Below, piece after piece: positions 7,839-40,818 of a stretch of DNA of 51,140 nucleotides. This DNA is from Bacillota bacterium (GTDB taxonomy: Bacteria > Bacillota > Clostridia > Oscillospirales > CAG-272), in NCBI GenBank assembly GCA_029219205.1, contig JAQXSY010000078.1, forward strand, positions 1 to 51,140, in the 5' to 3' direction. Position numbers and translations under genes: made by a program. Positions within the stretch are counted from its first letter, which is position 1. Every line of letters starts with the position of its first letter. The notes under the pieces are model-generated. The model had not been told where the DNA came from and did no database searches. It worked only from the letters and a program-made list of their open reading frames with translations.

Positions 7839-10800
7839 TCAGCTTTTCTTTTTGCTTTTAACCACGATTATAATAACAACCGCAGCAGCAGCCGCGCCGG
7901 CAATTACAATGATAATCCACCACGGGAAACCGGTTTCATTTTCGCCCTCGCCGGGATTTACGTTTTCTCCCGTCGTTTGCGGAACTGTCTCGGAATCGTC
8001 GGGTGTCGGTTCGTCAGTTATCGGAGCATCGGTTATCGGAGCATCGGTTATCGGTTCGTCGGTTTCGGGTTTGCGCGTTTCGATCTCTTTGTATCCGCAG
8101 ACGGAGCATACGCGTTCTCTTGTTTCATCCTCTGTATCAGTCGCTTCTTTTACAACGTTCCATTCGCCAAAGGTGTGAGCGGCTTCATTCATATTTTGAC
8201 CGCAGGTGCAGAGGTTCCAGTGATTTATGCCGTCGGCTTTCCACTCGCTTCCGGCATTATGCGTATGCGAATTTTTGACCGTAACATTGAATACGGCGGT
8301 TTTGCCCTCGTAGGTAACGGTTATTTTCTGAGTGCCGACGGTGTTCATAACAGTCGGAGAACAGGTAAATCCGCTTGTAATGTTTTTATATCCGTCGCTC
8401 ATCACAACGCGAACAATCATTTGGTCCGTATTCAGCGTTTCGCCCTTGATGTATTCAAGCTTTGCCGGCGTATTCAGTATCTCAATGCCCTCAACCGTAA
8501 CTTCGTCATTCTCAAAGGTAACCGCCGCGGTCTTTGTATAAACCGTTTCGCTGTGCATTCCCTTGTACTCCATATAAGCGGCGGCGCGGTAATAGGCTGT
8601 GCCCAGGATTTGATCCGGAATAAGGTCAACGCCGTTCGCTCCGCTGATGGGAGCTGCTCCGCTCATGTTGTATTCGGAGGATTTGTACCACTGAATGTGA
8701 AGCTCTCCTTCGCCGATCGGCTTAATAAACGTCGAAAGCTTTACATACTCGCCGAGCTTCGCCGTTACAGACTCCGGAGACGTAATTACAGACGGAATTC
8801 CGATTTCTTTTGTAAAAGTAACGGCGACAAGGTCGGAATATACGGATTCGCTGGCCACGATCCTGCCGTCTATTACAACATTGTTTGTAATCATGACGCA
8901 GTAGTAGGTGGTGCCTTCCAGCTGTTCGGGAATAAAGAACGACTGCGTTCCGTAGGCTTCGTCGTCCTCGTCATAGATTGCTTTGATTGTGGAAATGTCG
9001 TTGACGCTCGTCATGTACCACTGGAACTGCGTCGAATCGCTGTCATTCAGCTTAACTGTGACAAACATCATTTTCGGCGTATCGCCGAGTTTATAGGTCC
9101 CGCCCTTCGGCTGATCGATAATAGTAGGTATGTTTGCTTTCGGGATCTCGGTTGCCGGGAATGTATAGGAAACAATGTGATTTCCGTATGAATCCGTATG
9201 ATAGTCTGCGCTGCTGCCGTTGATTGTCGCATTAACCTTATCGGCAAAGGCATAACCGCTGTTTGCCATCAGATATACGCTGACGGTATAGGCTTTTCCG
9301 GCTTCAAAAATGTAGTGCGGTTCAAACCAGGAAACCGATTCAACCGTCACACCGACGGAATCAACATTGCATTTAAGATCGGGAACCGCTCCCGTTACAG
9401 GCGCGTCGATGCCGGTTATATTTACCGAAGTGATCTCGGCTGCTTTAACCATGGGGAATGTGTAGCTGATTTTCAGCTGCTCGGTTCCCGCGCCGGATAG
9501 GATCTTTGCGGTCTTGTTATTTATCGTTGCCGACGACATGGATTTTGCAAAAACGGAGCCGTTTGTTGTTTCGAGCGTGATGATCACGGAATACGACTTG
9601 TTTGCGGCAAAGGCGCTTTCCGAAGGATCCCAGTTCACCGAAGCGATATAGTAATTTCCGCCGGCTGTTGAAGCCGTTGCCGCGGGCTTTGCTCCGAGCG
9701 ACGGTTCCGTGACAGTCAGTGCGACTTTATTGACGGGAGTTGGTTCAACATAAAAGGTGTAGGTAACGGCTCTTTTGTTTTCTCCGCCGCTGACGCTGCT
9801 AATCTCAGCGGAATTGCCGTTCAGGGTTGCGGTCATTTTAGATGCGGCTTCAAACGCAAATCCGTCCTTCGGTTCAAGATAAACTATATACGAATAGTTT
9901 TTTCCTGCCTCAAATACGCTGTTTGCATTGAGATCCTTGGAATTGCTTCCGTCGCTCAAACGCCACCTTGTTCCGTAAATCACAGCGCCGTTCTGCGCGA
10001 TTTTCGGCGTGCTCATGTCGGGATGAGCGCCTTCGGCCGGAATGGTTATACCGCTCAGATTGATGTCGGTGATCTTGACGTCGAGCTTGGGGAAGGTATA
10101 GGAAAGCGTCAGTCCGTCATAATTTACGCCCAGCTGAGTCTGCACGCCTTTTTTAATCTCCGGAACCACATACGTTGTGCCGGAGCCGGATTTGTAGAGG
10201 CGTGCGTCCAGTTTGTCAAAGTCAAAGGCGTATCCGTCGTTTGGCATAATCTTAAGCGTCAGACGGTATTCGTTTCCGGCCGAGAAATAGGTGCTGCTGC
10301 CGATCGAATATCCGCCGTTCATCGTCCATTTGACAGCGTCGCTTGCCGACCCGATGTACGCATTGGCGGTCGAAACGCTGAAACTTGTGCCGATCTTTGT
10401 ATTTTCAGCCGGGAAGGTAACGTCCTTGACATAAACGCTTGGAATAAGCGCTTTTTCGGGCTTGAAGCTGCAGCTTATGCAATACAGCCCGTTTCCCTCA
10501 TCGGACACCGACGCGGTATATCCGTTAATCGTCGCCTTAAGCTGCGACGCACTGGCGAATTTATAATCCCATGAGGTTGTGACTATATAAGTTTTTATGG
10601 TATATGTACGGTTGGGCTGGAGCACATAGCTTGAGGAAGAGGTGTATTCGCTGCCGGTGCCGTCTGTTTTCCATACGGTACAATAACCGCCGGAGTTATA
10701 TATGCTAACGCCGGTTGTTGTCGTTTTCGGACTGTAGTCGGGCTTTTGTCCAACCGTCGGCGTCTGAATGGTAACGGCCACATTTTTGATAACTGTTGAC

Positions 10801-16368: not shown

Positions 16369-16752
16369 ATGAGGCGGGTCGTAATTGATATGCAAAGCTA
16401 TCTCTTCTCCGACGCCATTTCCATGGCTCTTATGAATTCGGACTACGACTTTGAAGTTCACAATTCATCATATCCGGGTGATACTGCGGAGTTATGCCGT
16501 CTGTTCACGCCTTATGCGCTTCTCATGGAAGTGACAAGCTATATGCCTTGGAAACTGGAAGAACGGCTTGCAATACGGAACAAAGTTAAACAGCAGGTTC
16601 CGGATTGCAAAATCGTTCTTATAGTTGATGAAAATTCGGAGAAAATGCTGGCGCGCGAGGTTGCTCAGGCAAAGAAAAACGGACTTATTGACAATTTTAT
16701 ATACGGTTCGGTTTCATCGGCTTATTTGTCTGCCGTTATTGACACATTATAA
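16369..16752 (+). CDS. Stand-alone atypical receiver-domain protein
   Basis: CheY-like length and pattern; LLMEV at the phospho-Asp position, PDCKIVLIV. Confidence 0.7.
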   Translation: MRRVVIDMQSYLFSDAISMALMNSDYDFEVHNSSYPGDTAELCRLFTPYALLMEVTSYMPWKLEERLAIRNKVKQQVPDCKIVLIVDENSEKMLAREVAQAKKNGLIDNFIYGSVSSAYLSAVIDTL

Positions 16753-16806
16753 GCGGATAAGCTTGCATATCACAGTAAAATTGCCGTTCACGGCGGCGTC
16801 GAAAAT

Positions 16807-16864
16807 TAATGAAAACACCATTGTAATTTTACACCGTAAGGTGCGGATAACAATGGTGTTTTCA
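16807..16864. repeat. Palindromic element, copy 2; probably also a bidirectional terminator
   Basis: TGAAAACACCATTGT...ACAATGGTGTTTTCA 15-bp arms, inner CACC-GTAA-GGTG. Confidence 0.8.
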
Positions 16865-16967
16865 ATTTTTACGAGTTTTTTCAAGGAATTCCGTCCCGGC
16901 TTTTTTCGGGAATTCGGCGTTTCATTCCGTTTTATTCCAAAATCAATCCGATTTTTGGATATGTAAT

Positions 16968-17402
16968 TTACTTATACATATCGGCAATGGCTTTTGTTGC
17001 CTGAACGGTTCCGCGCGGATGATGCGGAGGGGCATATACGGTTGAAATTAAGAGCGGACAGTTTCCGGTATTTATAATATTATGCCATGTTCCCGCGGGA
17101 ACAAAAACAGCATATCCTTCGGCAACGGGCCGCTGATAATTCAGCCTGTTTTCGGACGGACCCATAATAACCGTTCCGTTTCCGCTTTCAATCCTGAGAA
17201 ATTGATCATGATCCGGATGAAGCTCCAGCCCGACTTCTCCGCCGACAGGTATGTTCATCAACGTAAGCTGTAAATTCGGTCCGGTCCATAACGCGGTTCG
17301 ATATTTTGTATTTTGCTGAGCGGCTCTGTCAATATTCGTAACATACGGCGCAGGACCAAAATCGGTCATAGGTTTATGAAAGCAATTACTGTTTCGATTC
17401 AT
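16968..17402 (-). CDS. Cupin domain protein
   Basis: E.HP.HDQFL.IE.G and VPAGTWHNI.N cupin motifs; ATG at 17402 after GGGAG. Confidence 0.9.
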   Translation of the reverse strand: MNRNSNCFHKPMTDFGPAPYVTNIDRAAQQNTKYRTALWTGPNLQLTLMNIPVGGEVGLELHPDHDQFLRIESGNGTVIMGPSENRLNYQRPVAEGYAVFVPAGTWHNIINTGNCPLLISTVYAPPHHPRGTVQATKAIADMYK

Positions 17403-17527
17403 ATTACTTCTCCCTTCACGAGTAATTATATGAAAATTGCCTTTAGGCTGTGCAAACAAAACTGCGCAGGTTGCAAAAGAAACGGCAAAATCAGCCGCCC
17501 GGCGTTGAAAAAGTCAACCGGTTGAAA

Positions 17528-17575
17528 AAACGGACATAAATTATAATACACTTGTATCATAATTTATGTCCGTTT
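17528..17575. repeat. Long near-perfect palindrome
   Basis: AAACGGACATAAATTATAATACA-CT-TGTATCATAATTTATGTCCGTTT (23-bp arms, 1 mismatch). Confidence 0.8.
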
Positions 17576-17661
17576 ATGTCAAGAGAAACACAAAGATGCT
17601 GCTTAAGGACAGAACTCTGCTATCTGCCAAAAGAATAAGAAGAAATTATTGACTGTCAAAT

Positions 17662-17970
17662 TTATTGACTATCAACTATATTTTTCATGAGATTGAATAT
17701 GGAAATTTTAATGTCGCCGGGCAATTCGTTATAAATTCTTTCAAATTGTTCATAATCGACGCCGTCGCTGTTTTTTTCTTCTTTAAAAAATTCAGACAGA
17801 GTAATCCCAAATGCGTTACATATGGACTGTAATGTAACAATAGAAGGCAATGTCTCACGGTTAAACATATTTGTAATTGTTGACTGCGGCAAACCAGCTT
17901 CAACAGAAAGGCGATAGACCGACCAATTTCTATTTATTCGAAGTTGATTTATCTTTTTTAAAATATCCAT
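17662..17970 (-). CDS. XRE-family HTH transcriptional regulator
   Basis: WSVYRLSVEAGLPQSTITNMFNRETLPSIVTLQSICNAFGITLSEFF. Confidence 0.9.
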   Translation of the reverse strand: MDILKKINQLRINRNWSVYRLSVEAGLPQSTITNMFNRETLPSIVTLQSICNAFGITLSEFFKEEKNSDGVDYEQFERIYNELPGDIKISIFNLMKNIVDSQ

Positions 17971-18037
17971 AGGTCTAACACCTTCCTTATGTATTTATTA
18001 TACTGCACATTTGTAAAATATTATTTACCCAAATGTA

Positions 18038-18066
18038 TTGACTTTGATATACATTTGTAGTATAAT
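18038..18066 (+). promoter_or_regulatory. Sigma-A promoter overlapped by an inverted repeat (candidate XRE operator)
   Basis: TTGACT-17 bp-TATAAT; CAAATGTAT (18030) / ATACATTTG (18049). Confidence 0.7.
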
Positions 18067-18121
18067 AATTGTTGAGATGTAATGCGATTTTTCACATTAT
18101 GAATAAGGAGGAGCGATTATA

Positions 18122-18526
18122 ATGGAAAACAGCCAGGAAACAGTAAATGTTCAAACCGGAGAGACAAAATTCTGCAAAGAATGCGGCGAGAAAATCGCGG
18201 CAAAAGCCGAGATTTGTCCAAAATGCGGATGCAGAGTTGAAGCACCCGCCGCCGCAGCTGCTGCGCCGCAAATTGTTATCAATAACAGCAACCAAAATTC
18301 CAATCAGAATATAAATCAAATATCCGCGATGATGAAAGTAAAACAAAGGAATAAATTGGTTGCATTTTTCTTATGTCTGTTTTTAGGCTTTTTGGGCGCA
18401 CACAAATTCTATGAAGGCAAGACCGGTATGGGTGTTTTATATCTTTTTACAGGCGGTCTGTTCGGCATCGGTGTTATTATCGATTTAATCACGATTCTAT
18501 TTAAACCTAATCCTTATTTTGTATAA
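18122..18526 (+). CDS. Zn-ribbon + TM2 domain membrane protein
   Basis: FCKECG...CPKCG; [32 protein letters not shown]. Confidence 0.9.
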
Positions 18527-18910
18527 AAAAAAGCAGCCGATTGAACGGTTAGCTTAAAAATAATGAGTTTTCTTCTTTATAATAGTTAAGTTTAGACAGT
18601 CTCACTTTTTATTTGTGAGACTGCCGTTTTTTAACGGTTGCAGAGAAATACTTTAACTAAATGGGAAAAACAAAAAAGCCCCGACCGAAATGTCGGAACT
18701 CTGTTATTTTGTCCTACATGCGCGATTAAAAACCCATTTTGTTTTCTGCGTCGGCGTATTTTTTTCCGTTAAAAAAAAGACCTCAAAACCTGCGCGAAGC
18801 ACAGAAATTTTTTTGAACGTCCCATCTGCCGCAAAAGATTAAACCACAAAATTCTGATGTGGGGTTGAACCGACAAGGCTTTTTAACTGCTTTGAGCAGC
18901 GAATTTGCCT

Positions 18911-19062
18911 GAATTATTCATTATTCAGTTATTATTATATTGCCAATAAATAAAAATGGCAAGGCGAAGCCTTGCAAAACACTTTTTCACTATTCACTAT
19001 TACTTATTACTTCCAAAACCCAAAAGGCGAATTTAGTAAAGAGTGAAGAAGGTAACAAGTAA
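18911..19062. repeat. Heptamer-repeat / hairpin element
   Basis: TTATTCA x2, GCAAGGC-GAA-GCCTTGC hairpin, TTCACTA x2 TTACTTA TTACTTC, and a partly complementary GTGAA/AAGTAA arm. Confidence 0.5.
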
Positions 19063-19090
19063 GCCCCAAAGACTGATGCCTTTGGGGCTT
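19061..19090 (-). terminator. tRNA terminator hairpin
   Basis: AAGCCCCAAAG-8 nt-CTTTGGGGCTT immediately after the CCA end. Confidence 0.7.
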
Positions 19091-19177
19091 TGGTGCCGGT
19101 GGCGGGGGTCGAACCCGCATGGTATCGCTACCACCGGATTTTGAGTCCGGCACGTCTGCCAATTCCATCACACCGGC
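19091..19177 (-). tRNA. tRNA-Leu(CAA)
   Basis: GCCGGTG acceptor stem, anticodon loop CTCAAAA, long variable arm, GTTCGA T-loop, encoded CCA; promoter TTGCAT-17-TATAAT at 19220-19192. Confidence 0.97.
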
Positions 19178-19247
19178 ATATACAATTTCATATTATAGCA
19201 TAAAATTTCATATTATGCAAGTATAAATTTTATTTTCGGAGCGTAAT

Positions 19248-20579
19248 ATGATTAATTTTTTATGCGAACGAATTTTCGGACCGTTTTTACCGGTATTTCT
19301 CATCTGCGCCGGCATTTTTCTGGCCTTCAGGCTGCGCGGCACACTGCTGCGCCGTCCTGCCGGGATAATTCGTTCGATATTTACCCGCGCCGAAAAAAAT
19401 GAAAAGTCGCCGTTTATCGCAGTCGCGCTGTCGCTTGCAGGCACGCTCGGCGTCGGGAACATAACCGGCGTCGCGGCGGCGATAAAGACCGGCGGACCGG
19501 GCGCGGTATTCTGGATGTGGGCGGCGGCGCTGGCCGCCATGCCGGTAAGGTACAGCGAAATAGTGCTTTCCGTAAAATTCTGCAAAACCGAAGCCGGCGC
19601 CGCAGATTACATACGTTTGACAGGCAAAGCTCCCGCCGCCGCCGCTTTTTCCGCTTTGTGCGTCGCCGCATCGTTCACCATAGGAAACACGGTTCAGGTA
19701 AACGCCGCCGCAGAAGCCGTTTCGTATATGCTCCCTTCTCTTCCGCCGATTATTGTAGGGATAGCCTTCGCTCTGACGGTTCTTTTGGTAACCACCGGCG
19801 GATACGACCGAGTCGGAAAATTTTCCGCGGTTGTTATACCGGTTCTTTCGCTCGGATACGTACTGCTCTCGCTTGCCGTAATAATACCGAGGGCATCGGA
19901 GCTCCCGTCGATCATTTCACTGATAGTAAGCAGCGCGTTTCACTTTGAAAGCGCCGCCGGAGGAATTGCGGGTTTCCTCTGTTCTTCGGCGGTGCGTGTC
20001 GGAGTATCTCGCGGCATCCTGTCAAATGAGGCAGGCTGCGGAACAGCTTCATACGCGCACGGCGCAACGGGAGGGGATCCGGCGAGACGCGGCTGCTTCG
20101 GGCTTTTTGAAGTCTTCGCGGACACCATACTTATGTGCTCGCTGACCGCATTCACGATTCTGCTCGCGCCTCCGTCGGAGCTTGACGGCACTGCTTTGGC
20201 CATTGAATCGTTTTCGGCACCGTTCGGCGCGGCAGGTGAAGCGGTTGGTATATTCATAGCGCTCTCAACAGCGGTATACGCACTCGCTTCGGTTGTATGC
20301 TGGTCGCATTACGGCGTGCGCGCGCTGACCTTTTTTACGCACAATCCCATAGCTCGTCGAATCTATCTTCCGCTGTTTTCCGCGGCGTGCGTAACCGGAG
20401 CGGTCATGGCGCATTCGGAGGTATGGAAACTTGCCGATTTGTCGGTTGCAATGATGACAGTGCTGAATTCCTCCTGCGTATGCGCGTCGGCAGGTTATGT
20501 CGCAGAGGAAACCTTACGCTTTTTCGGAAAAAAACACAAATACGGCTCCGCAAAGAGAAAGGGACGAAGCGCCGCCTGA
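19248..20579 (+). CDS. Alanine/glycine:cation symporter (AGCS family)
   Basis: LAGTLGVGNITGVA, GGPGAVFWMW, RGILSNEAGCG, EVFADT. Confidence 0.92.
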   Translation: MINFLCERIFGPFLPVFLICAGIFLAFRLRGTLLRRPAGIIRSIFTRAEKNEKSPFIAVALSLAGTLGVGNITGVAAAIKTGGPGAVFWMWAAALAAMPVRYSEIVLSVKFCKTEAGAADYIRLTGKAPAAAAFSALCVAASFTIGNTVQVNAAAEAVSYMLPSLPPIIVGIAFALTVLLVTTGGYDRVGKFSAVVIPVLSLGYVLLSLAVIIPRASELPSIISLIVSSAFHFESAAGGIAGFLCSSAVRVGVSRGILSNEAGCGTASYAHGATGGDPARRGCFGLFEVFADTILMCSLTAFTILLAPPSELDGTALAIESFSAPFGAAGEAVGIFIALSTAVYALASVVCWSHYGVRALTFFTHNPIARRIYLPLFSAACVTGAVMAHSEVWKLADLSVAMMTVLNSSCVCASAGYVAEETLRFFGKKHKYGSAKRKGRSAA

Positions 20580-22274: not shown

Positions 22275-22937
22275 ATGAAAAAAACATTATACAGTCTGAT
22301 GCTTTCCGACGACGTCATGCGCGAGATTGACGCGCTCGCTCACAGAATGGGTACGAACCGCTCGAACCTCGTCAACATGATACTTGCGGAACGTGTTGAG
22401 ATGCAGACGCCGGAGCAGCAGATAAGCGACATTTTCAGCGAAATCGAGCGGCTGCTTTCCGCATCGCGCGAGCTGGTTCCGTTTTTTACGCCCAATGCCC
22501 AGCGGGTTGCGGTACGCTCAAGTCTTGAATATAAATACCGTCCGACACTCAGATATGAAGTTGAGCTTGCAAGCGGATTTGTTCCCGGGGAGCCTATCGG
22601 AACACTGACCGCAAGCTTCCGTACGCAATCGCAGGGACTGCTTGAACTTCTCGGACGATTTTTCCGTTGTCTCGGACGGATTGAGGAGCGAACGCTTCCG
22701 ATAGGAGTAGCATATTCGATAGAAAACGGACGGTTTACACGCGAACTCTCGTATCCGGTAAAGCGAAGCGGCTCCGGAGGCAGCAGCGCTCTCGACGCAA
22801 ACGAGATTTCACGCGCGATAACCGATTATGTCAGCCTGATAGACAAGATGCTTAAGGCGTGCGTCGGAGGCGCGGATTCGCAGACGCTCGCAGATATGTA
22901 TTCCGCGGACCTCGAAAAGCGTGCCGTCCTTATCTGA
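22275..22937 (+). CDS. Ribbon-helix-helix (CopG-like) domain protein
   Basis: N-terminus KTLYSLMLSDDVMREIDALAHRMGTNRSNLVNMIL fits the RHH pattern. Confidence 0.7.
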   Translation: MKKTLYSLMLSDDVMREIDALAHRMGTNRSNLVNMILAERVEMQTPEQQISDIFSEIERLLSASRELVPFFTPNAQRVAVRSSLEYKYRPTLRYEVELASGFVPGEPIGTLTASFRTQSQGLLELLGRFFRCLGRIEERTLPIGVAYSIENGRFTRELSYPVKRSGSGGSSALDANEISRAITDYVSLIDKMLKACVGGADSQTLADMYSADLEKRAVLI

Positions 22938-28500: not shown

Positions 28501-28581
28501 GCTAGTTACATGAATTATACGAAAATGTATAAAAATTAATCAGGCATGTTTAAAAACGGCAAGAAAGGATTAAAACCGAAA

Positions 28582-30051
28582 ATGAAAACCGCAGTAAAGA
28601 TTTTTTCTGTGCTTCTCGCGCTGATAATGGCTTTTTCGGCCGTGGCATGCGCCGGAACACAAAAGAACAATGAAAAGACCGATGAACCGGTGACTACAAA
28701 TGCTCCGGACACCGAACCCGATGAAGTTCAGTTTGAAAAAGACAATCTTCCAAGCGACATAAAAAGCCTTTATGACGGTAAAACCGTAACGGGACTTGTT
28801 TGGGAGGACGTTTATTTTCCGGAATTTTATATAGAAGAGCCTTCCGGAGATATCGTTTCAAACTCGATCTACAAGAGAAACCTGAATGTCAGCGAACGTC
28901 TTGGAATCAAACTTAATTTCGTTGAACAAAAGGGCAGCTACAATTACCAGGGCGACTTTGTCAACTATGCTTACAAATCAATATCGGGAAGCGAGCAGGC
29001 GTTCGACTATATAGGCGGATACAGCAGCGCAACGGCGGCTCTCATTCTCAAAAACGTTCTGACAGACCTGGCAAACGAGGAATATGCCCCGTATCTGGAT
29101 TACGATAAGCCGTGGTGGCCTAAGTTCCTTATTGAAGAAGCGTCGGTTCGCGGTCAGGTGCGCGCAATTTCCGGAGATATTTCAACGAACCTTATATATA
29201 TGATGTTCGGAATATATTTCAACAAAGAACTGCTTGACACATTCAATGTTGAAGATCCGTATCCGATTGCGGAAGCAGGAAACTGGACTATTGACCAGCT
29301 TATAGAAATGGCAAAAGTCTGCTACACAAATGAAGACGACGAATCCAGAAGATATTACGGATTCTATTCGACGCACAACTACCCGTGGTATCATACGTGC
29401 GGTTTCAAATATGTCGAGCATGACTCCGACGGCGATATATACGCTTCCGACGATATAGAAGACGAGCGCGTACATTCACTTATTGTAAAGCTTTGCGATT
29501 TTCTTTACACGGGTGAAAGAGAAGAACCTACCAATACAACTTTTAAAGACGGAAAAATCGCATTCACTTTATGTGAAATGTACTATGCCGCAAGCGATCT
29601 TAGAAGCGTCGAATTCTCCTTCGGATTCCTTCCTCCTCCGAAATATGATGAAAACCAGGAAAGCTATATAACCTGTCTCTCGTTCCCGCACACGCTTTAT
29701 GCGATACCCAAAGACGTAAAAGACTCGGTAATGTCGAGCGCAGTACTTGAAGCGCTTGCTTCCGAATCCTACAGAACGGTTTCTCCCGTACTGTTTGAGG
29801 ACGCTCTTAAAGTTAAGTATTCCGACATCGGAGACGCTTATTCATCAAGAATGTATGACTATACAAGAGCCGGAGTAACCTTCGATATGGGAAGAATGTT
29901 CGGAATGTGCCTCTTCGACGACCAGACCTGGGCGGCTTTCTCATCATGTATATCCGATAACAACCCCAACTGGGCGTCTAAAGCAAAGGGAATATACACT
30001 TTGGTAAAGAACCGTTTGAAGAAGCTGACAAAGGCAATGACCGCCGATTAA
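28582..30051 (+). CDS. Extracellular solute-binding lipoprotein (sugar ABC type), orphan
   Basis: Lipobox AVAC; YFNKELL, WTID.L, FGFLPPPKYDE.Q motifs. Confidence 0.8.
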   Translation: MKTAVKIFSVLLALIMAFSAVACAGTQKNNEKTDEPVTTNAPDTEPDEVQFEKDNLPSDIKSLYDGKTVTGLVWEDVYFPEFYIEEPSGDIVSNSIYKRNLNVSERLGIKLNFVEQKGSYNYQGDFVNYAYKSISGSEQAFDYIGGYSSATAALILKNVLTDLANEEYAPYLDYDKPWWPKFLIEEASVRGQVRAISGDISTNLIYMMFGIYFNKELLDTFNVEDPYPIAEAGNWTIDQLIEMAKVCYTNEDDESRRYYGFYSTHNYPWYHTCGFKYVEHDSDGDIYASDDIEDERVHSLIVKLCDFLYTGEREEPTNTTFKDGKIAFTLCEMYYAASDLRSVEFSFGFLPPPKYDENQESYITCLSFPHTLYAIPKDVKDSVMSSAVLEALASESYRTVSPVLFEDALKVKYSDIGDAYSSRMYDYTRAGVTFDMGRMFGMCLFDDQTWAAFSSCISDNNPNWASKAKGIYTLVKNRLKKLTKAMTAD

Positions 30052-30121: not shown

Positions 30122-32608
30122 TTATTCTTCGAATTCTTCATCCGTCTCTTCTTCCGTTTTGCCGTCGGACTTAACAACCGTCATATTAACGAGCTTTGCT
30201 CCGTCGGAAAGACGCATAAGTATAACTCCCTGGGAAACTCTTCCAACAGAGGATATGCCGTTTACGTGGGTTCTGATAACCGTTCCGGCGTCGGTAATAA
30301 AGAGAACGTCGTCGTCTTCGGAGACCGCGGAAACAGCGCTGAGCTTACCGGTTTTTTCGGTTATGTTATGACACTTCATTCCCTTTCCGCCGCGGTTGTG
30401 TCCCGCAAATTCATCAAACGAGGTCTGTTTGCCGTATCCGTTTTCTGTTACGGTAAGCAGCTTTTTATTTTCGTCAACAATAGAAACGCCGACGACTCTG
30501 TCTCCCTCTTCAAGACGGATACCGATAACTCCGGACGCGGTTCTTCCCATAGGACGAACCTGACTTACCGGGAATCTGACGGCAAGTCCATTCTTCGAAG
30601 CAATGATTATTTCTTCTTCCGGAGCCGTACTCAGAACAAATCCAAGTTCGTCGCCTTCATCAAGTGAAATTGCGATCTTACCGTTGCGGTTAATGCGTTC
30701 AAATTCGGAAAGAGATGTGCGTTTGATCGTACCGCCGCGCGTAATCATTGTAAGATAATCGGCTTCATCAAACATTTCGGCGGATATCAGAGCCGTAACC
30801 TCTTCGTCGGGCTGTATATCGATAATATTAATTATGTTTGAACCCTTTGCCGTGCGCGACGATTCCGGAATCTGATAAGCCTTTATTGAATAAACCTTTC
30901 CCTTATCGGTAAACATAAGCAGAGTCGAATGAGAATTGACCGCAGCTACCTTTTCAACCGAGTCCTCTTCCTTCGTTGTCATTCCTATGATCCCTTTTCC
31001 GCCGCGCTTTTGCGCCTGATAAACATCGGAGGGAAGACGCTTGACATAGCCGTCTCCGGTCAGCGTAATAACGCAGGTGTGACGCTCGATTATATCTTCG
31101 AGCATAATTTCATTTTCAACTTCAACGATTTCGGTCCGGCGTTCGTCGTTGTAGCGGTTTTTAATGTCCGTAAGATCATTTTTAATTATTTCTTTGAGCT
31201 TAATTTCATCGTCAAGCACCGCTCTGTATTCGGCAATAAGCGAGCGAAGCTCTTCAAGACGCGCCTCAACCTTTTCACGTTCCATTCCCGAAAGCTTACC
31301 GAGCGTCATATCGACGATTGCCTGAGCCTGAGCGTCGGTCAGTCCGAATGATTCGCAGAGTTTTGCCTTTGCGTCCGGAATCGATTCGCTTGAGCGAATT
31401 ATCTTTATGACCGCTTCGATATTGTCTATCGCAATTTTATATCCCTCAAAAATATGTTCGTCGCGCAGAGCTTTGTCAAGATCAAAACGAACGCGCCTTG
31501 TTACAACATCCTTCTGATGCGCAATGTAGTATTCAAGAATCTGCTTCAGATTAAGCACCCGTGGCTCGTTGTTTACAAGCGCAAGCATATTCACCGCACA
31601 CGTATCCTCAAGCTGAGTATATTTATACAACTGATTGAGAATAAGCTGTCCGTTTGCGTCGTGACGGTATTCTATAACGATACGCATACCGGCCCTGCCC
31701 GTTTCGTCACGAAGCGCGGTTATGCCTTCAATACGCTTTTCCTTTACGCAGTCGGCGATGCTGATTACAAGATTCGCCTTATTTACCATGTAAGGAATTT
31801 CCGTAACAATAATCCTGTGCTTGTCTTCCTCAATTTCCGCTTTTGCACGTACCATTATACGTCCTTTTCCGGTCATGTAGGACTCTTTTATACCGTTGTA
31901 GCCGTATATTGTGGCGCGAGTCGGAAAATCGGGACCTTTTATAAACTGCATAAGCTCCGGAATCGTCGCTTCGGGATGCTCCATAAGATAAATTGTACCG
32001 TCGATGACTTCGCCCATATTGTGAGGCGGAATATTTGTCGCCATACCGACCGCTATACCGACCGAGCCGTTTACAAGAATATTCGGAAAACGGGACGGAA
32101 GAACCGTCGGCTCCAAAAGCTTGTTATCGAAGTTCGGAGCCATATCGACGACGTTTTTATTTATATCCGAAAGCATTTCGCCCGCAAGCTTGGACAGTCT
32201 CGCCTCGGTATAACGGTAAGCAGCGGCTCCGTCTCCGTCGACGTTGCCGAAGTTTCCCTGTCCGTCAATTAAAAGATATCTGAGCGAGAACGGCTGAGCC
32301 AGTCTTACCATTGCGTCGTAAACCGAAGAGTCGCCGTGCGGATGATACCGTCCGAGTACGTTACCGACCGTTGCAGCCGATTTATGATACGGCTTATCAT
32401 ATGTCAGCTTATCCTCGTTCATTGCGTAAAGAATTCGTCTGTGCACCGGCTTCAGACCGTCGCGCACATCCGGAAGGGCTCTTGACTTTATAACCGACAT
32501 TGCATACTGTATAAAGGAAGCTTTAACTTCCTTTTCCATGCCCACGTCAATTATTTTTTGATTTTCAAATTCAAAATTTTCATCCTCGTGTTGATTTTTC
32601 TTAGCCAC
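30122..32608 (-). CDS. gyrA: DNA gyrase subunit A
   Basis: [31 protein letters not shown], GyrA-box QKRGGKG. Confidence 0.97.
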
Positions 32609-32639
32609 TTTAAAATTCCTTTCTTCTGCCGAAACGGAG

Positions 32640-32927
32640 TTATCAACAAGTTTTCAACAGCTTTTCTCATATTTTTCATCATATTATTTTTTTGAAAATC
32701 TGCTTTTTAAAACTCAAATAAACCATCCGTCACGGCATCTGTCCACCGATATCCTACAAGTTTTCCACATTTGATCAACAACCTGTGGAAAACAGAACTG
32801 TTCTTATTTTTGATAATATTATTCAAGAAAAAACTTTGCATTTATTACTGTCATGCCGATTTTTTACTCAAACAAACAACCAGTTTTCAACAAGTTTTTC
32901 ACATGCTGTTGAAAACAGTTATTCACA
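32640..32927. promoter_or_regulatory. DnaA-box cluster between gyrB and gyrA
   Basis: TTATCAACA 32640, TTTTCAACA 32651 and 32884, TTTTCCACA 32761, TGTGGAAAA 32784, TTTTTCACA 32895, TGTTGAAAA 32907, TTATTCACA 32919. Confidence 0.8.
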
Positions 32928-32933
32928 TTTTTT

Positions 32934-34895
<1,962 letters not shown>

Positions 34896-34910
34896 TTAAG
34901 TGGTCCTTTC

Positions 34911-35195
34911 TGTGGAAATGATCCGTATTTAAAACCCGGCTGTGGAAAATATTATTTTTTCCTTTGGCGCGGGGAGAATAAAAACATAGATAAGATAAGA
35001 ATATGTATAAACAAAAGTAATCGAAGTAAGGATTGTGGAAAATGTGGAAAACCGCTTGAAACAAGCCTGTCATGCAGTTTTGCCGGACAATAAAAACTAA
35101 AAATTAGCTGTGGAAAACGCAGTAAAAGCTGTTGCCGGAATCTGAAATCATAAATATGACATCCTGTGACAAGCCTGTGGAAAACTTGTGAGAAA
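34911..35195. promoter_or_regulatory. Putative oriC: DnaA boxes, DnaA-trio-like run and AT-rich tract
   Basis: TGTGGAAAA at 34941, 35034, 35043, 35109, 35176; near matches at 34911 and 35187; AT-rich tract about 34977-35020. Confidence 0.85.
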
Positions 35196-35201
35196 CCTGC
35201 G

Positions 35202-36695
35202 TCAGCGATTTTTCAGTTCCGATATCAGTCCTTTTACCTCGGCCTCATACTGAGGATTTGTCTTAATTTTATTTTCTACCGTTTCAAGAGAGTTTATTAT
35301 TGTTGAATGGTCTCGGTTGAAAACTTTTCCTATTGCCGGAAGCGACATATCGGTCATTGTGCGGATTATATATATTGCAATATGACGCGGTGCCGTAAGC
35401 TCCGATGAGCGTCCTTTGCCTTTCAGCGCTTCAACCGTAACGCCGTACTTTTTTGTTACAAGATTCAGAATTTTGTCAACGGTGACGCTTACCGGTTCCG
35501 AGCCTGTAAGCATATCGGAAATCGAACGTATAGCAAGATCAATCGTAATCGGAGCGCCGCTGAGAAAGCTCTTTGCCGCGATCTTTCTGACCGCTCCTTC
35601 AAGCTGTCGTACATTTGAGTGAAGATTCTCGGCTATGTACGCCATGACGTCAGTCGGCATCTGAATGCCGACGGCTTCCGTTTTGGCTTTTAAAATAGCC
35701 ATTCTCAGCTCCATGTCCGGAGGCTGTATATCTGCGCCGAGTGCGCTTTCAAAACGTGTTCTCAGACGTTCCTCAAGCGTTTTCATTTCGCGAGGAGGAC
35801 GGTCTGAGGTCATTATGATCTGCTTGTTGTTTTCGTAAAGCGCATTGAAAGTATGGAAAAATTCTTCCTGCGTCGATACTTTTCCTGCGATGAACTGTAT
35901 ATCGTCGATCAGCAATACGTCGGTCTGTCGGTACTTTTCACGGAACTGCTTTGTGATATTACGGCTTATAGAGTCTATAAGCTGATTTGTAAAATCTTCT
36001 CCTTTGACGTAAACAACCTTTTTGTCCGGCAGAGTTTTCTGAACGCGGTCGATAACTGCGTAGAGCAGGTGTGTTTTGCCGAGACCGCTCGGACCGTATA
36101 TAAGCAGGGGATTTGTGTTTCCTCCCGGATCCGCCGCCGCCGCTATACACGCCGAATGAGCAAACCGGTTTGAGCTTCCGACAACAAAGGTCTCAAAGGT
36201 ATATTCAAATTTATTAAATTTGTAAACGTCTGCGTAGTTAATGATTTTTGAATCGCCGACCGAAGTGAATATTTCCGGATTTGCAGGTTTTTCGTCGGTT
36301 TTTTGAACGTCCGTACTATCCGGCGGAAGAATGCATCCGATTTTATTTTCGGTTTTTTTCGAATTTTTATTATCTTCAAACGAAGTGTCTTCTTTTTGAA
36401 GCCGTATTTCCGAAAGCACCTTGCTCTGCGCTTGGTCCGAACGGATGTCAACGCTGACTTTGTATCCTAAAAGCTCCGCCAGCGCCTTTTCTATCTCCGT
36501 ACGGTATTTGTCGCCTCGTACAATGTCTCGTTTAAAATCGCTCTTTGCGACAAGTACAACGCTTGTATCGGTTATCATAACGATTTTAAGCTCTTTGAAC
36601 CAGAGATTCATCGTTGTTTCCGTATATTGAGTATTTCTTTCAATAACCTTGAGCGCGGCTTCCCAGACCTCGCTGTATTCAACATTTTCTGACAT
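35202..36695 (-). CDS. dnaA: Chromosomal replication initiator DnaA
   Basis: YTFETFVVG.SN, NPLLIYGPSGLGKTHL, LLIDDIQF, QEEFFHTFN, domain IV SLPAIG..F.RDHST. Confidence 0.97.
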   Translation of the reverse strand: MSENVEYSEVWEAALKVIERNTQYTETTMNLWFKELKIVMITDTSVVLVAKSDFKRDIVRGDKYRTEIEKALAELLGYKVSVDIRSDQAQSKVLSEIRLQKEDTSFEDNKNSKKTENKIGCILPPDSTDVQKTDEKPANPEIFTSVGDSKIINYADVYKFNKFEYTFETFVVGSSNRFAHSACIAAAADPGGNTNPLLIYGPSGLGKTHLLYAVIDRVQKTLPDKKVVYVKGEDFTNQLIDSISRNITKQFREKYRQTDVLLIDDIQFIAGKVSTQEEFFHTFNALYENNKQIIMTSDRPPREMKTLEERLRTRFESALGADIQPPDMELRMAILKAKTEAVGIQMPTDVMAYIAENLHSNVRQLEGAVRKIAAKSFLSGAPITIDLAIRSISDMLTGSEPVSVTVDKILNLVTKKYGVTVEALKGKGRSSELTAPRHIAIYIIRTMTDMSLPAIGKVFNRDHSTIINSLETVENKIKTNPQYEAEVKGLISELKNR

Positions 36696-36766
36696 GGCAG
36701 CTCCTTTGTAGGTTTATATGCGTCATTTTGGGGATTTATCGGTTTTATGTGCTTTGTGTCCCGGAA

Positions 36767-36802
36767 TTAACGGAGTTAATTTCTTAACGGAGTTAATTTC
36801 TT
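36767..36802. repeat. 17-bp tandem direct repeat upstream of dnaA
   Basis: TTAACGGAGTTAATTTC x2, exact. Confidence 0.85.
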
Positions 36803-36884
36803 GCCGATACGATTTTAAGCTCCTTAAACCGAAGATTTATCGTTTTTTTTGTATACTATTTCCGTCAGCCATTTTGAAAAATTG

Positions 36885-37121
36885 TCAGATTTCTCTGTTC
36901 TGTAAGGTCGAGGTTGAAATCTGCGACAGTATAACCTTGTTATCGTCTGTTAGAATAAAGGATTTCGGCAGCTCTTCCGCCGCCGTATCTGTGGCGCCGT
37001 TTTTCTCATGCGTTTTAAGAAAATCGCGGGTGTCGGCGGATACGGTCGCCGTATCAAGATCAAAAATTCCGATTATTTTCGAACATAAAATATTTTTACT
37101 GTTTCCGATGTGAAGAAACAT
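36885..37121 (-). CDS. remB: RemB/DUF370 family protein
   Basis: MFLHIG...IIGIFDLD...PKSFIL...LSQISTSTL; GGAGGA RBS; follows recF. Confidence 0.88.
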   Translation of the reverse strand: MFLHIGNSKNILCSKIIGIFDLDTATVSADTRDFLKTHEKNGATDTAAEELPKSFILTDDNKVILSQISTSTLQNREI

Positions 37122-37135
37122 AACTATCCTCCGCA

Positions 37136-38218
37136 CTAAAGCAATTCGGGAACTCCGCCGGACACTTTATACGCTTTTCCCTTTAATTTAACAGCCGGCT
37201 CGCAGGACGTCATGATAACCTGACGTCCGCCTATACCGGAAAGCAGATACTCTCTCCTGCGCTCGTCAAGCTCGCTCAGAACATCGTCGAAAAGAAAAAC
37301 GGGATATTCTCCGGTATACTCCTTTGAAAGCTCGCCTTCGGCAAGCTTCATCGCGAGCGCAATCGACCTCTGCTGACCTCTTGAAGCAAACGTACGCGCG
37401 TCTTTTCCGGACAAAGTAATTTGTATATCGTCCTTGTGAATTCCGTAGAGCGTGCAGCCTGCGCGCAGCTCTGCGTCAATATTTTCAGTCAGAAGCTTAA
37501 GATATGCGGATTTATCGCGCGGCGTCCGATAAACAAGACCGGCAACTTCGGCTCCGCCTGTCATATCTTTTACAAACGCTCCGGCTGCCTCTCCGAGCCG
37601 TTTTATATAGCAGTCGCGTTTTGAAGCAATAATTTCCGCTTCAAAGGCAAGCTGTTCCGACCATATTTCGATTGTGTCAATAAGCGAGTGCGGCGCGTTG
37701 GGCTCGCGGCAGGCGCGCAGGAGAGCGTTTCGCTGACTTAAGATATTGCTGTACTTTCTGAGCGACGAAAGATACAGCTTGTCCGACTGAGAAAGCGCCA
37801 CATCTGCAAACGAGCGCCTTGCCGCCGGTCCGTCGCAGACAATGGACAAATGCTGCGGGCAAAACAAAACCGCTCTGAAAAATCCGATCATTTCGCTCAT
37901 AAGAGTAACCGGCGCGCCGTTTTTACGGCAGAATCGCTTGTGATTTTCACCGTCCCACCTGACGCTCATCAGACAGCTTCCGGACGTTTCGTTTTCGCAG
38001 GAGAGCGAAAGTCCGGCTGACTGTTCGCCGTAGCGTATAAGTTCCGAATCGTGCGAGGAGCGGAAGCTTCTGCCTGACGCAAAAATGTATATTCCTTCAA
38101 GCAGGTTGGTTTTTCCCTGCCCGTTCATACCGCCGATGAATGTGACCTCGGGATCCGGCTCAATAACGGCGTCCTCGATATTGCGGTAATTATGGTATTT
38201 TATACGCTCGAGGCGCAT
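37136..38218 (-). CDS. recF: DNA replication/repair protein RecF
   Basis: YRN, GMNGQGKTNLLE, SFR, ASRGQQRS, LFDDVLSELD; start taken at ATG 38218. Confidence 0.95.
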   Translation of the reverse strand: MRLERIKYHNYRNIEDAVIEPDPEVTFIGGMNGQGKTNLLEGIYIFASGRSFRSSHDSELIRYGEQSAGLSLSCENETSGSCLMSVRWDGENHKRFCRKNGAPVTLMSEMIGFFRAVLFCPQHLSIVCDGPAARRSFADVALSQSDKLYLSSLRKYSNILSQRNALLRACREPNAPHSLIDTIEIWSEQLAFEAEIIASKRDCYIKRLGEAAGAFVKDMTGGAEVAGLVYRTPRDKSAYLKLLTENIDAELRAGCTLYGIHKDDIQITLSGKDARTFASRGQQRSIALAMKLAEGELSKEYTGEYPVFLFDDVLSELDERRREYLLSGIGGRQVIMTSCEPAVKLKGKAYKVSGGVPELL

Positions 38219-38222
38219 GGAA

Positions 38223-39371
38223 TTATTTAATGTGACGGACCGGACCGACAATCATGAGAAAACGCTTGTCTTCCTCTTCATCGTCCGGCTCGATAAGCGT
38301 AAACGAAAGCGGAGAGGTCATTGAGAGCTTGACGGTGTCGCTTTTCAAAGCCTTCATAGAGTCGCATAAATACCGGCAGTTGTAGCATATTTCAATATCC
38401 GGACCGGTTTTTTTAATTAAGGGAATATCGTCGCTGACGCTGTTTGTAATAGAAACGGCGCTGATGTTAAGCGATCCGTCCGTAAAATTCAAAATTACCG
38501 GAGTTTTTGCTTGTCCGGGCTGACGGTCCTCGGTAACGAGAAGCGCTCTGTCAAGCGCGTCGCTGAACTGTTCTTTGTCAATTTTTACATTAATTTCGCT
38601 CGATTTCGGAATTATCCGTTCGTAGTCGATGTATTCAACGTCGATCAGACGCGCGAACATGGTGTAGCGCTCGGTTTCAAAGAGAATGTGCTTGCGTCCG
38701 AGTCTGAGGGTGACCGCATCTCCGTCGCCGAGCAGACGCATAAGCTCGTCGGTTGTTTTAAGCGGAAGAATAAAGCGCATATCGATTTCTTCGCCGTCAT
38801 CATTTATCGAGGTAAGCTCGGTTTTCTGTTCACAGAGCGCAAGTCTGAATCCGTCGCTTCCGACCGCTGTGAAAACGCCGCCGCATACCTTCATGAAAAC
38901 GCCGTTGAGAGAGGGTCTGGGGTCGTTTAACGCAGCGGAAAACGCTGTGCATCTGATAAGCTCTGCAAGGTCGTCCTGCTTCATTGAAAAGCCCTTGTCG
39001 CTTGTAATTTCGGGCAGATCCGGGTAAGCCGATCCGGGCTGCGCCTGAAGCTCAAATACCGATTTTCCGTTATATATTCTTGTTTTCAGAGTTTTTTCAT
39101 CGATTTCGACAGTAACGTTTCCCGCAGGCATCGCTTTAATGATTTGGGCAAATCTCATAGCGTTAAGTAAAAAGAAGCCTTCCTCTTCGACTCGGCACGG
39201 TACAGTTACCTTTATTCCCTTTTCAAGATCATATCCGACAAACAGGCATCCGTCGCCGCAAGTTTGCATAAGAACACAGTCAAGCGCTTTGATTGTATTT
39301 TTTCCGGACGCGACCGAGCATACGGGAGCCGTCGATTCAATAAGCTTGTCACGATCAATCGTTATCTTCAT
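38223..39371 (-). CDS. dnaN: DNA polymerase III beta clamp
   Basis: YDLE, RPSLNGV, SDGFRLA, YIDYERIIP, YNCRYL.D, C-terminal PVR. Confidence 0.93.
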   Translation of the reverse strand: MKITIDRDKLIESTAPVCSVASGKNTIKALDCVLMQTCGDGCLFVGYDLEKGIKVTVPCRVEEEGFFLLNAMRFAQIIKAMPAGNVTVEIDEKTLKTRIYNGKSVFELQAQPGSAYPDLPEITSDKGFSMKQDDLAELIRCTAFSAALNDPRPSLNGVFMKVCGGVFTAVGSDGFRLALCEQKTELTSINDDGEEIDMRFILPLKTTDELMRLLGDGDAVTLRLGRKHILFETERYTMFARLIDVEYIDYERIIPKSSEINVKIDKEQFSDALDRALLVTEDRQPGQAKTPVILNFTDGSLNISAVSITNSVSDDIPLIKKTGPDIEICYNCRYLCDSMKALKSDTVKLSMTSPLSFTLIEPDDEEEDKRFLMIVGPVRHIK

Positions 39372-39414
39372 GTCGTTTTTCCTTTTCCTACATATTAATA
39401 TATATACTAAATAT

Positions 39415-39443
39415 ATTATATCACATTACACGTCTGAATGCAA
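39415..39443 (-). promoter_or_regulatory. Sigma-A promoter for dnaN
   Basis: Minus strand TTGCAT-17 bp-(TGn)TATAAT. Confidence 0.7.
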
Positions 39444-39561
39444 GCGAAAAACCGCCTTTGAAGGAAAAGAAAAACCGGTATTTTTCAAAAGATTTTGTAA
39501 AAATAAAAACAGCCGGCGCAAGACTGCAAATACAGCGCGCCGGCCAAAAAAAGGTATGTAA

Positions 39562-40818
39562 TTATCTCTTTGAGAGGACGTTATTTTCGTATGACTTGAC
39601 TTCGCACAGCCAATCGTTCCTTTGAGGAACATTCTGAGTTTCGCAGTAGCGGTCCCATACGGCGGCAAAGGGATACGACTTAAGCTCTTCAAGAAGTGCG
39701 AGCCGCGACGTATAATCCATATCGTTTTCATATTTACGAAGCAGCGCGGTAGGCTCGAGCTTTGCATAAAGAAGCGCTTTCTGCATATTGCGGGAACCGA
39801 TTACCCATGCGGCGATGCGGTTTATGGAGGCGTCAAAATAATCGAGGCCGATATGAACGCGGTCCTCAAAACCGTTGCGTACAATCTCAAGCGCAATATA
39901 TTTCAGCTCGTCGTCAAAAATTACGACATGATCGCTGTCCCAGCGTACCGGACGCGAAACGTGAAGCAGTATCTCGTCAAGGAAGAGTAGCGCAGAAGAT
40001 ATTTTGTCGGAAATCTGTTCCGTCGGATGGAAATGACCGGCGTCAAAGGTGAGAAGAGTGTTGTTTTTAACCGCGTAGCCCATAAGGAATTCGTGAGAAC
40101 CTATGGTGCAGGATTCCGCTCCTATTCCGAAAAGCTTGGATTCGATAGAGTCACGCGTATATTTCGGATCGAGCTTGAGCGCGAATATTTTGTCGTAGGA
40201 ATCCTTGAGTCGCGCGCGGTATGCCAAACGGTCTACCGGGATGTCCTTAAAGCCGTCGGGTGTCCAGTGATTCGTAATGCAGGTGCTGCCCATTTTTTCG
40301 CCTATGTACGCGGCGATTTTACGGCAGTTCAGCGCGTGCTCAATCCAGAAGCTGCGTATTCCTTCGTCGTGGTGGCTGAGCGTAAAGCCGTCGGAGGCAA
40401 GCGGATGCGACATGAAGGTTGTATTGAAGTCGATGCCGAAGCCGTTCTTTTTCGCCCATTCGATCCATGAGTCAAAATGTTTGGGCTGGGGTTCGTTTCG
40501 CGGCACGTTTTCTCCGAGATTGTCAAGATAGATTTCATGAAGCGAAATGCGTTTTATTCCGGGAATGAGCGACGCGGCTTTTGTAAAGTCGTCGCGGAGC
40601 TGATCAATATTAGTTGCTCTGCCGGGATAGTTGCCGGTTGTCTGGATGCCTCCGGAAAGAGCTGCGTCGGGATTTTCAAAGCCGTGAACGTCGTCGCCCT
40701 GCCAGCATTGTATGGAAATCGGTATCTTTGCGGTTTCTGCAATCGCCTTTTCGGTGTCGACGCCTAACTTTGCGTAAAGCTCCTTTGCGTATTCATAGGT
40801 TTTTTCGGTTGTTGACAT
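39562..40818 (-). CDS. rhaA: L-rhamnose isomerase
   Basis: CWQGDD, TGNYPGRA, ESKLFGIG.E, HVSRPVRWDSDH. Confidence 0.95.
   Translation of the reverse strand: MSTTEKTYEYAKELYAKLGVDTEKAIAETAKIPISIQCWQGDDVHGFENPDAALSGGIQTTGNYPGRATNIDQLRDDFTKAASLIPGIKRISLHEIYLDNLGENVPRNEPQPKHFDSWIEWAKKNGFGIDFNTTFMSHPLASDGFTLSHHDEGIRSFWIEHALNCRKIAAYIGEKMGSTCITNHWTPDGFKDIPVDRLAYRARLKDSYDKIFALKLDPKYTRDSIESKLFGIGAESCTIGSHEFLMGYAVKNNTLLTFDAGHFHPTEQISDKISSALLFLDEILLHVSRPVRWDSDHVVIFDDELKYIALEIVRNGFEDRVHIGLDYFDASINRIAAWVIGSRNMQKALLYAKLEPTALLRKYENDMDYTSRLALLEELKSYPFAAVWDRYCETQNVPQRNDWLCEVKSYENNVLSKR

Follow-up and report, generated by a model that had tools for sequence, protein, structure and literature searches.

A rearranged gene order, dnaN-recF-remB-dnaA-gyrB-gyrA, at the putative replication origin of an uncultured Clostridia lineage

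In Firmicutes the gene context of the replication origin, rnpA-rpmH-dnaA-dnaN, is conserved (PMC7561715). In Clostridioides difficile the unwinding of the DNA occurs in the dnaA-dnaN spacer (PMC7561715), and in Bacillus subtilis the basal unwinding unit consists of a DnaA box adjoining the DnaA-trios (PMC6669920). The dnaA-dnaN cluster is breakable, as seen in Escherichia coli, Helicobacter and others (PMC8359277, PMC4285127), and the gene directly upstream of gyrB can be dnaA, dnaN or recF in other bacteria (PMC7561715, PMC4285127, PMC8359277). Here we analyse a stretch of DNA of 51,140 nucleotides (nt), hereafter the window, which is the entire contig C78 of a metagenome-assembled genome (MAG; assembly G000) of a Clostridia species, and where the minus strand carries the order rhaA-dnaN-recF-remB-dnaA-gyrB-gyrA at 30122-40818. 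The contiguity of recF-remB-gyrB-gyrA is broken in that dnaA and a 306-nt spacer rich in DnaA boxes stand between remB and gyrB. Our searches of the literature, to which this statement is limited, gave no description of the order dnaN-recF-remB-dnaA-gyrB-gyrA in a Firmicute.

It is noted that the locus is a variant of a well-known system and not a new kind of system, and rearranged origin contexts are known in other phyla. It shares with the canonical origin region of B. subtilis and C. difficile the same co-oriented gene set and, right after dnaA, a box cluster with tandem boxes, trio-like repeats and a stretch rich in adenine and thymine (AT-rich) (PMC7561715, PMC6669920). By contrast with the canonical Firmicute arrangement, dnaN-recF-remB lie upstream of dnaA, the module that follows dnaA abuts gyrB, rpmH-rnpA is unlinked, and no box cluster is present upstream of dnaA. 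While the broken clusters of E. coli and Helicobacter are phylum- or class-level features, here the change concerns one species-level lineage and the module stayed with dnaA. One of the most conserved bacterial gene orders is cleanly broken in an uncultured species of the pig gut and wastewater.

In our judgement the locus is probably a genuine, lineage-specific rearrangement of the origin cluster, i.e., a swap of two blocks, with a working origin in front of gyrB and with dnaN on a promoter free of DnaA boxes.

Gene order, assembly support and comparison with relatives

A preliminary description of this DNA had placed the six genes from dnaN to gyrA in the present order, with dnaA between remB and gyrB, with dnaN and recF 4 nt apart, and with rhaA, not rpmH or rnpA, upstream of dnaN. 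All of this is borne out: the six genes are all on the minus strand, the Pfam matches are full-length (Table 1), the 4 nt lie between the dnaN stop codon (38223-38225) and the recF ATG (38218), and rpmH is located on another contig, C51, behind uvrA. The frame of dnaA is open, with no stops, and encodes a full-length protein in which domains I, III (AAA+) and IV (helix-turn-helix) are intact, the matches covering positions 1-64 of 65 of the DnaA_N profile, 4-159 of 162 of Bac_DnaA and 1-69 of 69 of Bac_DnaA_C. In a tblastn search of the assembly with the six proteins, dnaA, dnaN, recF, remB, gyrB and gyrA are each single-copy, and the remaining matches, at 29-31%, are limited to gyrA and gyrB paralogues that lie on different contigs. 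The same search gave no second dnaA-dnaN locus, so that the assembly holds no canonical one elsewhere. A weak second match to Bac_DnaA, on contig C4, was rejected as a DnaA; it belongs to an IstB/DnaI-like loader beside a DnaB_2 protein.

The order is read from a short-read MAG of 2.30 Mb in 191 contigs (95.6% complete, 1.35% contamination), and it can be argued that it is an assembly artefact, with the contig being chimeric or its blocks being mis-ordered in the graph, and with the organism having the canonical order in reality. Besides the fragmentation into 191 contigs, the mosaic skew along the contig and a remB-dnaA junction with no bridge among the listed independent contigs would favour such an explanation. 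Parts of the stretch occur in 19 public runs, none of them RNA, that come from 10 studies of pig gut, faeces and wastewater, and Logan contigs from four runs of four studies were aligned on the window. The dnaA-gyrB junction is bridged by X1 record 4 (34404-35612, 4 differences) and X5 record 26 (33331-35333, 36 differences), and the rhaA-dnaN junction by X1 record 7 (38338-39598) and X5 record 29 (37384-40068, 19 differences). X5 counts as independent because it represents a distinct strain, with 0.7-1.8% differences, from another study. These two junctions, found in contigs assembled separately from the runs of other studies, suffice by themselves to exclude the canonical adjacencies dnaA-dnaN and remB-gyrB. 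Moreover, no repeat of at least 25 nt is common to the four junction spacers or recurs outside them in the genome, which removes a swap of blocks driven by repeats in the assembly graph as an explanation, and none of the six genes has an alternative copy in the assembly.

Weighing against the rearrangement are the following facts. X1 differs so little from the window that it may represent the source sample, which leaves X5 as the sole clearly independent witness. The remB-dnaA junction (36696-36884) is carried by the MAG contig only, and among the pieces listed from the four runs none spans the 50 nt at 36797-36846, X2 record 12 stopping at 36796 and X5 record 28 starting at 36847. In a genome that is 95.6% complete, a second dnaA-dnaN locus could in principle lie in the missing part. 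Support is thus obtained from independent assemblies for two of the three new junctions, dnaA-gyrB and rhaA-dnaN, and not for remB-dnaA. On the whole, misassembly is unlikely, and we consider it very unlikely that the organism really has the canonical order.

The relatives were surveyed in two sets, both annotated using the window's own proteins. The first set consists of up to 20 kb around dnaA from 37 genomes within the family and order of the window, and the second of 155 further loci out of metagenome and genome collections. The 192 loci are not the same number of independent genomes, some contigs being present in two collections, and they represent the family and order level, with none from the genus of the window; scans of the collections gave no DnaA above about 50% identity across the whole protein. 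The adjacency of dnaA followed by gyrB is present in none of the 192 loci. Among the 155 informative loci, dnaN comes next after dnaA in 150, the uninformative loci being contig ends. For the first set, the next gene after dnaA is dnaN in 32 loci, a remB-like open reading frame (ORF) and then dnaN in one, and recF (with dnaN undetected) in one, three being uninformative; for the second set, it is dnaN in 118, remB in one and no known gene in two, with 34 uninformative. On the side of gyrB, the upstream gene is remB in 96 of 97 loci.

The closest relative, G013, which gives the best match for GyrB (70%) and DnaN (45%) of the window, has the order dnaA-dnaN-recF-remB-gyrB-gyrA. In a quick maximum-likelihood tree of DnaA with 37 rows, the protein of the window falls within the clade of the family (support 100), where its sister is that of G013 (support 89). 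As judged from this tree, dnaA is native to the family, and because G013 is canonical the gene order of the window is derived and not ancestral. The survey is thus in agreement with the preliminary description in that the rearrangement is real, and among the sampled loci the swap appears confined to one species-level lineage within an otherwise canonical family. The MAGs of the same family (e.g., G013, G011, G023) resemble the window in having no yaaA and in having boxes of the TTTTCCACA type, with several of them also having a second box cluster between gyrB and gyrA. They differ from it in having dnaA-dnaN-recF-remB-gyrB, and many carry, between gyrB and gyrA, a PfkB kinase that the window lacks.

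The absence of yaaA had been listed in the preliminary description as a part of the rearrangement. The gene is indeed absent between dnaN and recF, and a search of the genome for the S4_2 domain of yaaA was negative. However, the absence does not belong to the rearrangement. In 17 of the 18 same-family loci holding both genes, the aligned ends of dnaN and recF are under 125 nt from each other, too close for yaaA to fit. The exception is L052, with a gap of 499 nt, where neither of two small ORFs tested has an S4_2 domain. Elsewhere in the order, two further families have an S4_2 gene of 71-73 amino acids (aa) between dnaN and recF. On this comparison, the loss of yaaA is a family trait, unrelated to the move of dnaA.

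DnaA boxes and the candidate unwinding site

The dnaA-gyrB spacer contains the densest cluster of DnaA boxes in the assembly (34941-35184, 5 boxes in 244 nt, with at most one mismatch to TTATCCACA). Five TTTTCCACA boxes are located at 35176-35184, 35109-35117, 35043-35051, 35034-35042 and 34941-34949, and one ATTTCCACA box at 34911-34919, with all the boxes of this spacer sharing one orientation. The second densest cluster lies in the gyrB-gyrA spacer, which is also listed as repeat family D3. The motif TTWTNCACA has 11 sites in the window versus 3.94 ± 1.93 expected, a number that was reached in none of 100 shuffles, and 9 of the 11 sites fall in these two spacers. Of the exact TTTTCCACA copies in the genome, 7 of 45 are on the window contig. 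No DnaA boxes are found in the rhaA-dnaN and remB-dnaA spacers. In the relatives, the dnaA-dnaN spacer has up to 10 boxes, and the gyrB-gyrA spacer often has boxes too, up to 5 (5 in G002 and 3 in G013). A third cluster in the assembly, on contig C127, has 3 boxes with mixed mismatches in coding DNA and was taken as chance.

The tandem boxes at 35034-35051 are followed by trio-like repeats and an AT-rich stretch at 34973-35033, whose AT content reaches 85% and in which lies the third least stable 50-mer between 30 and 42 kb. This module of tandem boxes, trio-like repeats and AT-rich DNA aligns to the dnaA-dnaN spacers of G023, G017 and G002 with scores of 45, 44 and 40, respectively, the null being 20.5 ± 3.1 with a maximum of 37 (n = 800). 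The dnaA-dnaN spacers of the relatives close with one box or a tandem of them, after which come a brief C-rich run, trinucleotide repeats of the CTA type and AT-rich DNA; the period-3 T/A-rich repeats of the window align with these clearer CTA-type repeats. As both the layout and the alignment match the dnaA-dnaN spacers of the relatives, the candidate unwinding module is, on this homology, one that travelled with dnaA and is now directly in front of gyrB, with some DnaA boxes no more than 50 nt from the gyrB start. This is the main anatomical point of the locus, and it was missing from the preliminary description. The upstream spacer of dnaN, compared with the same dnaA-dnaN spacers of the relatives, scored 31-32, not above the null maximum of 37, and does not qualify as a relic of the old unwinding site.

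Based on this anatomy, we infer that replication fires at the dnaA-gyrB spacer, where binding of DnaA to the tandem boxes would lead to opening of the trio-like and AT-rich DNA beside them, most likely as in other Firmicutes. Evidence of a different kind does not fit easily with an origin at this site. The whole-sequence profile of guanine-cytosine (GC) skew is dominated by gene orientation. At four-fold sites the GC skew in the genome is strand-asymmetric, with contig means of about ±0.1 to 0.2 and with 70-90% of the genes being concordant in sign; in the window it is mostly positive right of 38 kb and near zero, not negative, left of 35 kb. With the skew near zero on the left side, the mirror-image switch of a long-standing origin is not seen. 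With an origin at 35 kb, at least 14 consecutive genes, from dnaA to yqfD, would point toward it, these being dnaA, remB, recF and dnaN and ten beyond (rhaA to yqfD). In addition, the trio-like repeats match the 3'-GAT-5' consensus (PMC6669920) only loosely.

According to a rival explanation, the order is real and initiation occurs elsewhere, for example at a strand switch or on some unplaced contig, with the boxes being regulatory or relict. Such an explanation would agree with the lack of a negative-to-positive skew switch at 35 kb, with the 20-kb run of genes in one direction that crosses the site, and with the least stable DNA of the region being upstream of dnaN, not beside the boxes; origins apart from dnaA are also known, for example in E. 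coli (PMC4285127). Several other observations speak against it: no comparable box cluster is present on other contigs, that of C127 being the next best, and no boxes are found near uvrA and rpmH on C51. Moreover, the spacer has retained the tandem-box, trio-like and AT-rich layout of the relatives' spacers, and the skew is noisy and unrelated to the gene-strand majority. We regard initiation elsewhere as unlikely. As a separate observation on the genome, the GC skew at third codon positions, as at four-fold sites, is bimodal among the contigs and does not track the gene-strand majority, which is unexpected for a Firmicute; C24, with 3 plus-strand and 29 minus-strand genes, has positive skew, and so has C113, with 28 plus-strand and 6 minus-strand genes.

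With the origin being placed in the dnaA-gyrB spacer, the second box cluster, in the gyrB-gyrA spacer, would be only about 2 kb from the unwinding site. A tentative and somewhat doubtful extension of this proposal is that the two clusters flanking gyrB form a bipartite origin in which gyrB, in place of dnaA, is looped out, with dnaA and dnaN being transcribed toward the origin. If so, the locus would represent a natural transposition of a 'dnaA-oriC cassette', selection would keep the unwinding module linked to dnaA and not to dnaN, and the expression of gyrase could be wired directly to the origin. Irrespective of this extension, the locus offers a natural test of which linkage matters, dnaA-oriC or oriC-dnaN, as the initiator gene and the unwinding site are together and the clamp gene is apart, and also of whether dnaN must adjoin the unwinding site or sit under the dnaA promoter. 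Note also that origin-finding rules built on the dnaA-dnaN spacer would overlook what is probably the origin of this genome, which is a warning for automatic origin prediction.

A possible route of the block exchange

Because all gene orientations are kept, the change would be an exchange of blocks and not an inversion. In the proposed route the family ancestor would have had rpmH pointing away from dnaA, followed by dnaA-[DnaA boxes, unwinding site]-dnaN-recF-remB-gyrB-gyrA. The block of dnaA with its downstream module of DnaA boxes, trio-like repeats and AT-rich DNA and the block of dnaN-recF-remB would then have exchanged places without inversion. At least one further break would have placed the rhamnose genes ahead of dnaN, with rpmH-rnpA-yidC-jag remaining on a different contig behind uvrA.

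A candidate scar is present at the remB-dnaA junction, where a diverged 47-nt copy of nt 70-116 of the dnaA coding sequence starts 30 nt after the remB stop codon. Its local score is 54, while shuffles give 19.8 ± 2.6 with a maximum of 31 (n = 500), and the copy looks like a scar of the rearrangement. A short copy of nearby sequence exactly at the new junction fits with tandem duplication and loss or with template switching, and a route of this sort is suggested in preference to cut-and-paste. Its divergence of 17% implies that the event was not recent. No single-step model was derived that gives both the 47-nt fragment and the intact dnaA behind it.

The same final order would also be expected if a foreign dnaA-oriC cassette had entered the remB-gyrB interval, with subsequent loss of the native dnaA, i.e., by replacement, and dnaA-oriC does behave as a unit here. 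This is hard to reconcile with the position of DnaA inside the family clade as the sister of G013, which is also the closest for GyrB and DnaN, with the box type (TTTTCCACA) and the module layout, which match those of family members, and with the 47-nt fragment, which matches the resident dnaA at 83%. A foreign cassette is therefore extremely improbable in our view, and the exchange of native blocks remains our preferred reading.

In flank synteny, the neighbours of the window cluster and of C51 have no counterparts near the origin clusters of the relatives. In the window, rhaA closes the minus-strand run yqfD-phoH-ybeY-era-recO-mutS2-TIM barrel-rhaB-rhaA. The order on C51 is uvrA-rpmH-rnpA-yidC-jag-smpB, and a glycoside hydrolase gene lies divergently ahead of uvrA. 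There, at 16379-19492, rpmH-rnpA-yidC-jag follow uvrA in the same direction, and a promoter-like TTGACA/TATAAT is present in the uvrA-rpmH spacer.

The upstream region of dnaN and other features

In an autoregulated operon of the B. subtilis type, dnaN is read from a promoter upstream of dnaA that bears DnaA boxes. Here, by contrast, dnaN precedes dnaA, and its upstream spacer appears to contain a terminator and a −10 element and no box. The preliminary description had given dnaN a consensus promoter of its own and had concluded that dnaN is uncoupled from DnaA autoregulation. With regard to the promoter, the extended −10 element, TGaTATAAT (39415-39423), is perfect, while the −35 element, TTGCAT (39438-39443), matches TTGACA at only 3 of 6 positions; it is because of the latter that this candidate was omitted by the consensus promoter scan, which gave weaker overlapping candidates. 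The candidate lies inside the least stable 50-mer of the region from 30 to 42 kb, and no DnaA box is found in the 190-nt spacer upstream of dnaN.

With regard to the uncoupling, it is plausible that dnaN has been released from the control by DnaA, as a promoter upstream of dnaA can no longer serve dnaN and the promoter region of dnaN is free of boxes. On the other side, the rpmH-dnaA spacer of the relatives holds 0-1 boxes in all of the 11 loci (11/11), which means that promoter-box autoregulation is not evident anywhere in the family. Moreover, the scan predicted no terminator and no promoter in the remB-dnaA interval. A dnaN-recF-remB-dnaA transcript is therefore possible, in which dnaA may be co-transcribed behind dnaN, and this weakens the case for uncoupling. 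In the proposed mechanism, dnaN-recF-remB and possibly also dnaA would be read from the box-free promoter behind the rhaA terminator.

Table 1. Coordinates of the features at the rearranged locus
Feature	Position	Strand	Evidence or remark
gyrA	30122..32608	-	Pfam DNA_topoisoIV, 533 bits, and gyrase C-terminal repeats
gyrB-gyrA spacer, second densest box cluster (32640-32927)	32609..32933	.	4 boxes, at most 1 mismatch, both orientations
gyrB	32934..34895	-	Pfam
Candidate oriC unwinding region, dnaA-gyrB spacer, 306 nt	34896..35201	-	Boxes, alignment to relatives, stability
dnaA, 497 aa	35202..36695	-	Bac_DnaA 218 bits, Bac_DnaA_C 82 bits, DnaA_N 28 bits
Perfect 17-nt tandem repeat, 2 copies, remB-dnaA spacer, about 70 nt upstream of the dnaA start	36767..36800	-	Repeat family D17
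Diverged 47-nt copy of dnaA coding nt 70-116, candidate scar	36809..36855	-	39/47 identical, family D4
remB (RemA-like/DUF370), 78 aa from ATG 37121	36885..37121 (ORF to 37136)	-	Pfam RemA-like, 43 bits
recF	37136..38218	-	Pfam
dnaN (beta clamp), 382 aa	38223..39371	-	All three beta-clamp domains
Candidate dnaN promoter: TTGCAT, 17-nt spacer, TGaTATAAT	39415..39443	-	Read from sequence
Terminator-like hairpin and T-run after rhaA	39509..39527	-	Terminator prediction, sequence
rhaA (L-rhamnose isomerase), new upstream neighbour of dnaN	39562..40818	-	Pfam RhaA, 667 bits

Some minor features of the locus are noted. The start of remB is likely the ATG at 37121, which has GGAGG in front of it, and the alignment of the relatives' RecF begins at about residue 9-12 of the long recF ORF of the window. 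The 17-nt tandem repeat in the remB-dnaA spacer does not represent a DnaA box and might serve for the binding of a protein. Two plus-strand ORFs of the window have no Pfam match, one of 501 aa just downstream of gyrA (28546-30051) and one of 220 aa ahead of clpB (22275-22937).

Other variations are observed among the relatives. A remB-like ORF directly follows dnaA in L047 (G007, 10585-10758) and in L110 (1164-1391), and in G007 no remB-like ORF is found between recF and gyrB, which represents another small reshuffle within the family. In the sister genomes G009 (L054) and G014 (L055), no recF was detected between dnaN and remB. Many family members have a PfkB-family sugar kinase of about 300 aa between gyrB and gyrA (e.g., L036:15637-16563), the kinase-bearing spacers being about 1 kb, several of them with 2-5 DnaA boxes; the window and G013 have no such kinase, with the gyrB-gyrA boxes being kept. 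Finally, the dnaA-dnaN spacer of G023 (L038) is 1883 nt long, about 1.5 kb beyond those of its relatives, and long stretches of it recur inverted, as if an element with inverted ends had been inserted between dnaA and the unwinding module.

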